A stretch of 64,000 nucleotides of DNA from an uncultured bacterium (lineage in GTDB: Bacteria > Bacillota_I > Bacilli_A > RFN20 > CAG-826). The position numbers were made by a program, and so were the translations under genes. This document shows positions 29,444 to 32,498 of this stretch, in pieces (position 1 is the first letter of the stretch; each line of letters begins with the position of its first letter). The stretch spans positions 12,974-76,973 of the forward strand of contig CASFZJ010000005.1 in the NCBI GenBank assembly GCA_949299165.1. The letters are read 5' to 3'. The notes beneath the pieces were generated by a model that had not been told where the DNA came from, did no database searches, and was given only the letters and a program-made list of their open reading frames with translations.

Positions 29444-30172
29444 ATGTCGAAAAAGTTATTAAGCGAAAAAGATGTTATATCATATAAACGGGTAAAAATT
29501 ATCCAATCTGCACTTCTAATAATTTTTGGAATTGTTTTATGTATTTTTTCTAATTCAGCCGATGTTCAAAATGCACTTGGTTATATTACAGCAAGTATAA
29601 TTTTACTTTATGGTGCTTTAACAATCGGTTTTGGAATGATTTTCGTTAAAGGGATTTTAAGCATTGAAAACGTAACTGGCGCAGCTTTAATTTCGTTAGC
29701 GGTTTTAATATTTGTTAATCCAGAAATTGTTATGGAATATTTAGCGGTCTTTGCTGGCACAATGCTTCTTGTTTTTGCACTTATTTTCATCATTGAAATT
29801 GTAATTGCAATAGTTAGTAAAACTACAAAGAGTGCAATGTTTGTCATCGATATTTTAGCTGCATTTATCTTTTTAATTTTAGGTATATTAACGATTTATT
29901 TCAATTATTCTTCTGAAAGTTCAACCTTAAGAATGATTCTTATTATCTTAATAGGAATCACTTTGATTATCGCTGGAGGCTTATTAATTTTCTATTATGC
30001 GGCCAATCCAAAATTTAAAATCAACCAAAAAGTCATTTATTCTGAAGATGGCGAAAGCAAAATAACAGTTGTCAAAACTAATGTTTATAAATCAAACAAA
30101 AAATCAAAATCGAAAAAAATAACTGAGAATAGCAAGGAAAATGATAAAAACGAGATAGCAGAAGTTAAATAA
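29444..30172 (+). CDS. DUF308/HdeD-like membrane protein with Lys-rich tail
   Basis: Six TM in a repeating pattern, C-terminal KSNKKSKSKK tail. Confidence 0.6.
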   Translation: MSKKLLSEKDVISYKRVKIIQSALLIIFGIVLCIFSNSADVQNALGYITASIILLYGALTIGFGMIFVKGILSIENVTGAALISLAVLIFVNPEIVMEYLAVFAGTMLLVFALIFIIEIVIAIVSKTTKSAMFVIDILAAFIFLILGILTIYFNYSSESSTLRMILIILIGITLIIAGGLLIFYYAANPKFKINQKVIYSEDGESKITVVKTNVYKSNKKSKSKKITENSKENDKNEIAEVK

Positions 30173-31118
30173 CTTTGTTAGCTAAATCGCCATTTAAATA
30201 TGCGTATAAGTTAGAGAAAGCAATTTCAGCTCTCTTTTTCATAGCTTCTTTTGTCATATAGCCAATATGAGGGCTAAGAATTACGTTATTTAATTTTAAA
30301 AGTTCATTATCTTTATTTAATGGTGGCTCAATTGAAAAAACATCGAGTGCCGCTCCTTTAATTCTTTTTTCCTTTAAAGCATTTACCAAAGCCACTTCAT
30401 CAACAATTCCACCACGAGAAGTATTGATTAAATAGGCGTCTTTTTTCATCATTGCAATTTCTTTTTCACCAATTAAATGTTCGCTTTCTTTATTTAATGG
30501 TAAAGTTAAGCACACAAAATCGCTCTTTGACATAATGTCTTTTAAATCAACATACGTTGCGCCTTTTTGAACTAACTCTTTTTTTATAGTTCTGCTATAA
30601 GCTAAAACTCTTAAATTAAAAGCTTGGAGAAGTTCGTTAAGTCTTGCCCCAATTTTTCCTGTACCTATAATGCCAACTACTTTATTATCTAATTCCTCTC
30701 CGAGTAAATTTCCATGAGTTTTACCTTTTCTAGTTTTTATTTCGTTATTTCGTAAATCGCGCAACAAAGAAATAATAAAGGCTAAATTTAGTTCTGCAAC
30801 TGCTTCTGTTGCGTAACCACTACAATTTGAAACTTCAATTTTGTGCTCTTTGCAATAAGTTTGAGGAATATGATCATAGCCTGTAAAAGCAACATCGATA
30901 TATTTTAAATTTAGACATTTTGAAAGAACATCTTCGCTTATTTTTGTGTTATCAACAATTAAAATATCAGCATCTTTTATTCTTTTTAAGATTTCTTCGT
31001 CGTTTTTTGGTGCCTTTAAATAATAAATAAATTCATGACCTAGTGAAGATAAATCTCTTTTGATTCCCTCATAAAGACCTTTATTTATCAACAAATCATT
31101 TAGTAAAACTATTTTCAT
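30165..31118 (-). CDS. D-isomer-specific 2-hydroxyacid dehydrogenase (NAD-binding)
   Basis: GIIGTGKIG Rossmann motif and catalytic R/E/H context (NTSRGG, SPHIGY). ATGA overlap with the upstream gene. Confidence 0.85.
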   Translation of the reverse strand: MKIVLLNDLLINKGLYEGIKRDLSSLGHEFIYYLKAPKNDEEILKRIKDADILIVDNTKISEDVLSKCLNLKYIDVAFTGYDHIPQTYCKEHKIEVSNCSGYATEAVAELNLAFIISLLRDLRNNEIKTRKGKTHGNLLGEELDNKVVGIIGTGKIGARLNELLQAFNLRVLAYSRTIKKELVQKGATYVDLKDIMSKSDFVCLTLPLNKESEHLIGEKEIAMMKKDAYLINTSRGGIVDEVALVNALKEKRIKGAALDVFSIEPPLNKDNELLKLNNVILSPHIGYMTKEAMKKRAEIAFSNLYAYLNGDLANKVI

Positions 31119-31708
31119 TTTTTAATACCTGTTAATTCGATAAATCTAGGTAATTTTTCACACCATTCGCAAAAAACATGCCGTTCTTTTAACTTATGAT
31201 ATCTTCTTTGAAGATACATTGTTTTAAGTTGTTGATAATTAGTAACCATAGTAGCACCAAGGCAAAAACCACATGGAGTTGAAGCAACTAATTCTCTCCA
31301 TTTTGCTTTTTTCTTATCACCATCTTCTTCACCAATTGCGTTATATTCGTCTTTAATACGATTAACAATCGCTAAAACTTCTTTATTTGTGTCAGAAACA
31401 CATTGGTTTTCAATATCAAATTTTAACAAGCAATGCATTGTAGATTGAGAAGAAACATATTCAAAAAAATGATATCTTTGAGCTTGTTTCCACCAATAAA
31501 GTGGGGCAGTAATATCAAATTCAACAACTATGCCTTTTAAATAATTATCGTGTCCTTCGCCTGGATGACAACTTCCAAGTTTTGAAGCTCTCAAATAATC
31601 TTTCTCAGTAACTTCGTTACGGTCAAAAGCCGTTCTCATAGGGTTTCCGCTTGCCTTAACAGCAAATTCAAGTCCATAAACATTAGTTTTTCCGATATTA
31701 AAATCCAT
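31115..31708 (-). CDS. divergent ThyX-fold (Thy1-like) protein, function unknown
   Basis: GHDNYLKGIVVEFDITAPLYWWKQAQRYHFFEYVSSQSTMH aligns by eye to the ThyX core GHE..EH..F.F.I.APIF..RQ..RHR.....SxRY, but RHR is RYH and the distal R is lost. GGAGG RBS lies inside the folD 3' end. Confidence 0.55.
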   Translation of the reverse strand: MDFNIGKTNVYGLEFAVKASGNPMRTAFDRNEVTEKDYLRASKLGSCHPGEGHDNYLKGIVVEFDITAPLYWWKQAQRYHFFEYVSSQSTMHCLLKFDIENQCVSDTNKEVLAIVNRIKDEYNAIGEEDGDKKKAKWRELVASTPCGFCLGATMVTNYQQLKTMYLQRRYHKLKERHVFCEWCEKLPRFIELTGIKK

Positions 31709-32498
31709 TTTCTTTCGCCTCCACTAAATTAATTAAAAGGGCCAGCCTTGTAAGTAAACCAACACCTCCTGGCACTGGAGATTGAAAAGCAACAGGAAGG
31801 TCTTTTTCACAATCACCAGTTAATTTATTTTCTTCATTTCTATTAATTCCAACATCAATTATATAAGCACTCTTCTTATATTCAAATGAGTGATTTAAAA
31901 AACCACTTTTCCCAATAGCAATTACGATTAAATCGGCTTCTTTTACTAATTTTTTCAAAGTATCAATAGGAGTTTTTGAATGTGCTACAGTAACAGTCAT
32001 ATCTTGAGCAAGCAATAATTTTGCCATTGGTTTGCCAACGATATTGCTTCTACCAATAACTAAAGCATTTTTGCCTTTAAAATCATAATTTTGGTCAATT
32101 AAATAAGTTAAAATTCCTTTTGGCGTTGCACTTTCAAAATGTGATAAAGGATTAAAACCATCTAAATCTTTTTTAGGATCAACGGCAATTTTAACTTTTT
32201 CTTCATTGATTCCTTTTGGTAAAGGAAGTTGAACGATAAAACCAGTTACAGAATCATCTTTATTTGTTTCTTCGATTTTTATAAGCAAATCTTTTTCACT
32301 TATGTCGATCGGAAGCTTTTCAAGTTCAACTGTTGCGCCAATTTCATTAATATCCTTAATTTTTCCGTTTACATATGTGCTAGACGCATAATCATCGTTT
32401 ACTTGAATTATTTTTAAAAGAGGTTTTTCAGCCATTATTAAAATTTTGTCTTTTAATTCAGACTTTTTCTTCATGACATATTCTTTAATTGGTAGCAT
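31698..32498 (-). CDS. folD: bifunctional methylene-THF dehydrogenase/methenyl-THF cyclohydrolase
   Basis: VTGFIVQLPLP, GRSNIVGKP and PGGVGLLT motifs. Confidence 0.9.
   Translation of the reverse strand: MLPIKEYVMKKKSELKDKILIMAEKPLLKIIQVNDDYASSTYVNGKIKDINEIGATVELEKLPIDISEKDLLIKIEETNKDDSVTGFIVQLPLPKGINEEKVKIAVDPKKDLDGFNPLSHFESATPKGILTYLIDQNYDFKGKNALVIGRSNIVGKPMAKLLLAQDMTVTVAHSKTPIDTLKKLVKEADLIVIAIGKSGFLNHSFEYKKSAYIIDVGINRNEENKLTGDCEKDLPVAFQSPVPGGVGLLTRLALLINLVEAKENGF

Follow-up and report, generated by a model that had tools for sequence, protein, structure and literature searches.

Gene X, the subject of this report, lies in a 64,000-nt stretch of contig CASFZJ010000005.1 from an uncultured bacterium (the window; coordinates without a prefix are positions in it) and encodes a 197-aa protein which we consider likely to be this organism's thymidylate synthase, a member of an undescribed ThyX-fold family that is probably flavin-dependent and carries a new conserved signature. 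X appears to be the sole thymidylate synthase of its genome, and in many gut Bacilli and phages it appears to have taken the place of ThyA. What is directly observed is the gene together with its conservation, linkage and phyletic pattern. An earlier note on this DNA had pointed out the 197-aa open reading frame (ORF), which is present on the minus strand, and had quoted two motif strings from its translation, both of which are exact (residues 77–92, and residues 156–171, T-N-Y-Q-Q-L-K-T-M-Y-L-Q-R-R-Y-H). The gene and its motifs are as follows.

31115..31708, minus strand: gene X, 197-aa ThyX-fold protein, proposed thymidylate synthase (ORF reading, fold model and phyletic pattern)
31547..31561, minus strand: codons of G50-E-G-H53-D54, the family G-x-G-H-D motif, paired by hhalign with the G-H of ThyX
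31433..31480, minus strand: codons of residues 77–92 (Q-R-Y-H...S-S-Q-S-T-M-H), the signature found in place of RHR-x7-S-x-R-Y (conservation in 90 members)
31181..31243, minus strand: codons of residues 156–176 (T-N-Y-x-Q-L-K-T-x-Y-x-Q-R-x-x-H-K-L-x-E-W), equivalent of the ThyX N...R...H...E helix (hhalign)

The source genome (1.43 Mb, 98.4% complete) gave no match to ThyA (PF00303), to ThyX or to dihydrofolate reductase (DHFR), and contains serine hydroxymethyltransferase (SHMT), thymidylate kinase (Tmk), flavin adenine dinucleotide (FAD) synthetase and five genes of the cytidine/dCMP-deaminase family. The earlier note had called for a check on whether a thyA or a canonical thyX is encoded elsewhere in the genome; none was found, and X is the only candidate synthase. 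When 41 relatives from the genus itself and from sister families of the order were compared, 22 of the 24 genus members had X, as against none of the 16 genomes from the sister families, 9 of which have ThyA and 7 ThyX. The sole genus member above 90% completeness that lacks X, G009, has ThyA. Two further members of the genus (G016 and G022, with 4–6% contamination) hold a canonical ThyX together with X, and G016 has a further X-like match (C112:30376-31002), a weak one that lies within a 355-aa open frame; these extra genes could stem from a prophage or from contamination.

In a broader sample of 400 genomes of the phylum, all at least 90% complete, X was found in four families, for which the distribution of the two synthases over 101 genomes (at least 96% complete) is given below.

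Own family (42 genomes, this one included): X only 30, ThyA only 10, both 1, neither 1
Erysipelotrichaceae-like (48 genomes): X only 19, ThyA only 26, both 3, neither 0
Turicibacter (4 genomes): X only 3, ThyA only 1, both 0, neither 0
Fourth family (7 genomes): X only 1, ThyA only 6, both 0, neither 0
Total (101 genomes): X only 53, ThyA only 43, both 4, neither 1

X is thus almost perfectly mutually exclusive with ThyA across the four families, and no canonical ThyX was detected in the 80 of these genomes that were tested for it. X-only and ThyA-only genomes coexist within three genera, g20 (6 with X, 5 with ThyA), g30 (1 and 2) and g72, which is Turicibacter (3 and 1), and the replacement has therefore happened repeatedly. 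At the level of the locus, ThyA-bearing relatives keep the folD region intact except that it has no X. G009 has folA immediately after thyA (L015:4881-6222), and about 3.5 kb upstream of the pair this locus also contains a transposase-like gene, which hints that the thyA-folA pair was acquired horizontally; by eye, the transposase-like ORF (L015:122-1372) resembles IS110. G333 (own family, 96% complete, about 0.9 Mb), alone among the 101 genomes in lacking both X and ThyA, gave no match to ThyX or DHFR, and none to FolD with the window FolD as query, and it has apparently lost the folate-dependent route to deoxythymidine monophosphate (dTMP) altogether.

The distribution of DHFR follows that of the two synthases. 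All 26 ThyA genomes tested have DHFR, whereas 42 of the 53 X-only genomes are without it, among them each of the 30 X-only genomes of the family to which the source genome belongs. By analogy with ThyX, this pattern is the one expected if X releases tetrahydrofolate (THF) and not dihydrofolate.

The ThyX fold that the earlier note had claimed for X was borne out by structure prediction. An AlphaFold2 model built on 63 homologues reached a mean predicted local distance difference test score (pLDDT) of 96.6, and the top Foldseek matches in the PDB were all ThyX or PolB (probability 1.0, template modelling score 0.62–0.72, 13–18% identity). VIA-align superposed the model on the ThyX of H. pylori, T. 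thermophilus and T. maritima with a Z score of up to 14.2 and a root-mean-square deviation of 2.6–2.8 Å over 175–180 of 197 residues, the first unrelated fold appearing at Z 4.5. As modelled, X unambiguously has the ThyX fold.

Searches with sequences and profiles gave a fainter echo of the same relationship. Below the gathering score of Pfam Thy1 (PF02511; 24.8 bits), colinear matches were obtained in the best X members, P0233 (21.5 bits) and the Turicibacter copy P0272 (15.2 bits), and eight other members scanned alongside them at E≤10 showed no Thy1 match. PDB sequence searches with the single X sequence, with the 63-sequence profile or with P0233 found no ThyX. When 90 X sequences were aligned with 31 ThyX sequences by hhalign, a weak, colinear match over 168 columns resulted (E 0.0057), and the comparison of X with the ThyX of seven relatives yielded a 26-column match only (E 0.06). 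In these alignments X P145..R168 is paired with the P-N...N...R block of ThyX.

With the M. tuberculosis ThyX positions read from the alignment (H69, R95-H96-R97, S105, R107-Y108, R172, P176, N188, R199, H203 and E207), hhalign places as kept in X the residues H53 of the G-H pair, R78 at or next to the RHR site, P145, N157, R168, H171 and E175. The register at R78-Y79-H80 is ambiguous: the spacing from G-H to the first Arg is 25 in X and 26 in the ThyX of M. tuberculosis and C. glutamicum, and hhalign pairs Q-R-Y of X with S-Q-R-Y of ThyX, an alternative register. The canonical RHR motif itself is seen in the ThyX of relatives and of M. tuberculosis and is absent in X.

Predicted in four copies, X scored 0.86 in the interface measure ipSAE compared with 0.00 for the best of three controls. 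Among proteins whose structures were solved as one-chain pairs, 20 of 30 attain this mark, as does 1 of 23 among those solved as a single chain. The four-copy runs agreed in at least 97% of contacts with a partner pLDDT of at least 85, and the scored copy touches each of the other three. Conserved residues 78, 80, 83–90, 92, 163 and 166–167 sit at the predicted subunit interfaces. X is accordingly predicted to be a homotetramer with active sites at the subunit interfaces, a result which may only reflect its likeness to ThyX because ThyX tetramers are among the structures solved in the PDB.

The family to which X belongs is large, very divergent within the ThyX fold and nearly nameless. Relatives of X number 2,334 among 90%-identity clusters (E≤0.001), all of them without a Pfam domain or a name, and 2,299 among 50%-identity representatives. 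NCBIfam has no match to X, and in PHROGs X matches phrog_6721 from end to end (E 1.2e-51), a family labelled 'unknown function'. Cellular copies in Turicibacter, in Bulleidia sp. zg-1006 and in an Erysipelotrichaceae metagenome-assembled genome (MAG) are publicly named 'hypothetical protein', the sole exception being a divergent Longicatena copy with the automatic UniRef label 'Thymidylate synthase complementing protein'. No description of the family was found in the literature, although a paper outside the searchable literature is possible.

Conservation was counted in 90 diverse members of the family. Two residues are invariant, Y79 and S89 (90/90 each), and P145, Q167, R168 and H171 are each found in 89 members. 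H53, R78, S87 and G147 are kept in 87 members each, H92 and Y158 in 86, M91 in 85, and G52 and N157 in 84, the family-wide pattern around position 80 being Q-R-Y-[HK]...S-S-x-S-x-M-H. The earlier note had described a broken RHR signature. That RHR...S.R is replaced holds true (R78-Y79-H80, with no Arg at the S-x-R position), but the replacement is conserved rather than decayed: as judged from the aligned sequences, the altered motif is a distinct and nearly invariant new signature and not a breakage, because its replacement residues hardly vary across the 90 members.

A group of longer forms of X (396–468 aa) was encountered among the metagenomic homologues P0124, P0154, P0184, P0192, P0202 and P0245. 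They are enlarged by an in-frame insert that contains an HNH_3 domain and often an AP2 domain as well; in P0124 it measures about 250 aa and follows X residue 36. Pfam finds no intein (Hint) domain in the longer forms, and the insert looks like a homing-endonuclease insertion, of the kind that occurs in essential phage nucleotide-metabolism genes.

In the window, X is the second of three tightly packed minus-strand genes, and the features that surround it are listed here.

31698..32498, minus strand: folD (methylene-THF dehydrogenase / methenyl-THF cyclohydrolase), the conserved upstream partner of X (PF00763 and PF02882)
31698..31708, minus strand: 11-nt overlap of the folD stop with the X start (sequence reading)
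31718..31722, minus strand: GGAGG ribosome-binding site of X, within the folD 3' end and 9 nt ahead of the ATG (sequence reading)
30165..31118, minus strand: D-2-hydroxyacid dehydrogenase, 317 aa, a lineage-specific downstream passenger (PF00389 and PF02826)

Much of this arrangement had been described in the earlier note and was read again at the same places: the start of X (ATG at 31708–31706) and its GGAGG lie inside the 3' end of folD (TAA at 31700–31698), the TGA of X and the ATG of the dehydrogenase share the ATGA at 31118–31115, and Pfam agrees with the naming of both flanking genes. The tight coupling to folD extends well beyond the window, since 85 of 86 loci of close relatives (gut MAGs titled uncultured Bacilli, 'Mollicutes', Candidatus Onthovivens and similar) have folD immediately upstream of X and on its strand. 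The triad of folD, X and 2-hydroxyacid dehydrogenase proposed for survey in the same note is, by contrast, not conserved. The dehydrogenase follows X in only 14 of the 86 loci and was dropped as a functional partner of X, and an M29 aminopeptidase gene stands directly downstream in 27. For the dehydrogenase no NCBIfam equivalog reached its cut-off (best PGDH, 219.6 bits, and glyoxylate reductase, 216.2 bits), and a promoter scan round folD performed no better than on shuffled sequence. Convergent with the dehydrogenase gene is a gene for a 242-aa multi-pass membrane protein without a Pfam match (29444-30172, plus strand), the two 3' ends overlapping by 8 nt (30165-30172).

Several other arrangements place X next to genes of deoxyuridine monophosphate (dUMP) supply and of folate metabolism. 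In 12 of the 86 loci the order is dCMP deaminase, folD, X, and some of these adjoin nrdD, a TrxB-like gene and nrdG. In two Erysipelotrichaceae genomes (G225, which is Bulleidia sp. zg-1006, and G119), a formate-THF ligase gene (fhs) is followed by a gene for a 289-aa protein, mnmG and X. Distant phage copies (36–46% identity) lie in deoxynucleotide modules, one reading NrdD, NrdG-like, dUTPase, X, ..., DNA polymerase A and another NrdD, NrdG-like, ..., X, a 62-aa ORF, dUTPase. In Fusobacterium phage Fnu1, C. perfringens phage XP41-N3 and C. difficile phage phiCD211, X lies in replication/recombination regions, and no ThyA or ThyX was found in these three phages. The contigs of the members P0122, P0127, P0134 and P0148 were not long enough to show neighbours. 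From the variety of these arrangements it follows that X has been linked repeatedly and independently to suppliers of dUMP and to folate one-carbon enzymes.

Two of these neighbourhoods hold further genes of note. The NrdD of relatives bears a C-terminal glutaredoxin domain (L058:40-1698, plus strand) and is followed by a thioredoxin-reductase-like flavoprotein (L058:1698-2600, plus strand) and a convergent NrdG (L058:2597-3280, minus strand), a layout which suggests that their class III reductase uses a thiol-based reductant system. The protein of about 290–300 aa encoded between formate-THF ligase and mnmG (L127:1536-2405, plus strand; L131:6396-7295, minus strand) is conserved and has no Pfam match, and its gene may be one more with a folate or one-carbon role that annotation has missed.

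By analogy with ThyX, a reaction can be proposed in which FAD binding, the use of dUMP and methylene-THF as substrates and reductive chemistry are all putative. An X homotetramer would bind FAD with active sites at the subunit interfaces, and the methylene of 5,10-methylene-tetrahydrofolate would pass to reduced flavin and from there to C5 of dUMP, the products being dTMP and tetrahydrofolate and not dihydrofolate. FolD together with SHMT would maintain the supply of methylene-THF, and dUMP would be provided by dCMP deaminase in bacteria and by dUTPase in phages. With tetrahydrofolate in place of dihydrofolate as the product, DHFR would be dispensable.

A number of observations weigh against this assignment. 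The Pfam Thy1 model (PF02511), a check put forward in the earlier note, gives no match to X at E≤1. X does not retain the RHR motif's second Arg, the segment S-x-R-Y or the Arg that stands four positions ahead of the conserved Pro. These belong to the dUMP- and FAD-contacting residues of ThyX, of whose Arg only R78 and R168 are kept in X, and since only part of the ThyX residue set remains, the nucleotide and flavin clamp of X must differ from that of ThyX. In the window copy, residue 176 is Arg (CGG, 31181-31183, minus strand), a position at which Trp (TGG) stands in 87 of 90 relatives. The source genome has thymidine kinase, and salvage could thus supply dTMP. DHFR is retained in 11 of the 53 X-only genomes, and its correlation with ThyA is not fully independent evidence because thyA and folA are adjacent and are gained and lost together. 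Related genomes are, moreover, non-independent samples. As for residue 176, the same W-to-R exchange was seen again in 4 of 121 close homologues (P0001, P0004, P0011 and P0082), whose flanking residues differ, and a tolerated polymorphism, a T-to-C change that recurs or an error of assembly could each account for R176.

The earlier note had preferred the view that X acts on something other than dUMP or is not catalytic. In one rival reading of this kind, X would be a ThyX-fold one-carbon transferase acting on another pyrimidine (UMP or dCMP), or serving hydroxymethylation or nucleic-acid modification, with dTMP obtained by thymidine kinase salvage. The R-Y-H in place of RHR and the missing Arg at the S-x-R position are in keeping with such an enzyme, as are the thymidine kinase of the genome, the existence of ThyX folds with relaxed specificity (PolB is among the structural matches, at Z 13.3) and the presence of the family in many phages, which often modify pyrimidines. 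We nevertheless hold this explanation to be unlikely, as it leaves three features unexplained: the near-perfect exclusion of ThyA, with 1 genome in 101 having neither gene even though lineages without a thymidylate synthase exist elsewhere in the class; the fact that the folD locus is without X precisely in those genomes that have thyA-folA; and the repeated adjacency to dCMP deaminase and dUTPase. The lack of ThyA and ThyX in the source genome and the nearly invariant new signature likewise speak against both of the alternatives that the earlier note had favoured. That note had also named, as an outcome contrary to its proposal, that X should prove to be the only thymidylate synthase, and the genomics point that way. 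That X is a ThyX relic which has decayed and lost catalysis, or that it serves in regulation or binding, is in our estimation highly improbable. The loss of the canonical ThyX motif and the W176R exchange of the window copy would fit this reading, but the replacement motif hardly varies in a family of over 2,000 sequence clusters, identity is higher for X than for FolD in every one of the 86 related loci where both were scored, the reading frame is unbroken in every locus, and the conserved residues fall at the predicted interfaces, where the active sites of ThyX sit.

A different departure would be that X makes dTMP by chemistry other than that of ThyX, with another reductant, another mode of flavin binding or no flavin at all. 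It is the conserved residues without a counterpart in the ThyX motif (Y79, S87, S89, M91, H92, Y158, Q167 and H171) and the sub-threshold sequence relationship to Thy1 that speak for such a scheme, which we regard as quite improbable given that X matches ThyX in its overall fold and its predicted tetramer, that G-H, N157, R168, H171 and E175 align with conserved ThyX positions, and that DHFR is dispensable in most X-only genomes, as fits a reductive, THF-releasing reaction. Unlikely, though conceivable, is the view that X constitutes a third sequence class, in which the nucleotide/flavin site would be rebuilt within a ThyX scaffold on Tyr79, Ser87, Ser89, Met91, His92, Tyr158 and His171, the mechanism of substrate activation or the reductant would be unlike those of ThyA and ThyX, and sensitivity to inhibitors would be different. 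The reading that we favour remains that of a ThyX-fold thymidylate synthase of this organism.

A comparison with the known systems sets this reading in context. X resembles ThyX/Thy1 (PF02511, TIGR02170, EC 2.1.1.148), for which structures exist of T. maritima TM0449 and of the H. pylori and M. tuberculosis enzymes, in its fold over the whole protein (Z 13.5–14.2), in the predicted homotetramer and the colinear G-H, N and R...H...E positions, and in its exclusion of ThyA, the frequent absence of DHFR and its occurrence in bacteria and phages. It differs from ThyX in its low identity, in being missed by Pfam Thy1, NCBIfam and PDB profile searches, in the change from RHR-x7-S-x-R-Y to its own signature with the Arg before the conserved Pro missing, and in that its linkage to folD is fixed. 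PolB, the UMP/dUMP methylase of polyoxin biosynthesis (PDB 4P5A/4P5B), shares the ThyX fold with X (Z 12.4–13.3) and is an example of that fold with altered substrate handling. It is, however, a recognisable ThyX paralogue in an antibiotic gene cluster whose host keeps a housekeeping thymidylate synthase (PMC5954106), whereas the genomes of X offer no other candidate synthase, and X itself occurs in core nucleotide and folate contexts; its neighbours are folD, secG, uvrB and peptidases, with no nucleoside-antibiotic cluster. Reviews count two thymidylate synthase families plus PolB-type paralogues (PMC5954106). The pair of ThyA and DHFR (thyA-folA) is of an unrelated fold on the side of ThyA, and X has no PF00303 match; X nevertheless appears to fill the same role, the two swapping within genera. 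Lastly, phrog_6721 is the same family as X as seen in phages, and its record gives no function and contains neither the bacterial context nor the replacement of ThyA.

Since 2002 the textbook view has been one of two thymidylate synthase families, ThyA and ThyX, and genomes without either have been taken as thymidine auxotrophs. The X family is unseen by Pfam and NCBIfam and functionless in PHROGs, yet it appears to provide the sole thymidylate synthase in many gut Bacilli, including the uncultured 'Mollicutes'/Onthovivens-like lineage of the window, many Erysipelotrichaceae, among them Bulleidia, and 3 of 4 sampled Turicibacter, and it also occurs widely in phages (about 2,300 clusters at 50% identity). 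The proposal is directly testable in cultured strains and in E. coli. If it is true, metabolic reconstructions and auxotrophy predictions for gut microbes would be corrected, and the absence of DHFR would be explained, which in turn would predict the response of these organisms to antifolates and fluoropyrimidines. For enzymologists, X would offer a natural ThyX scaffold in which the hallmark RHR and S-x-R residues have been replaced.

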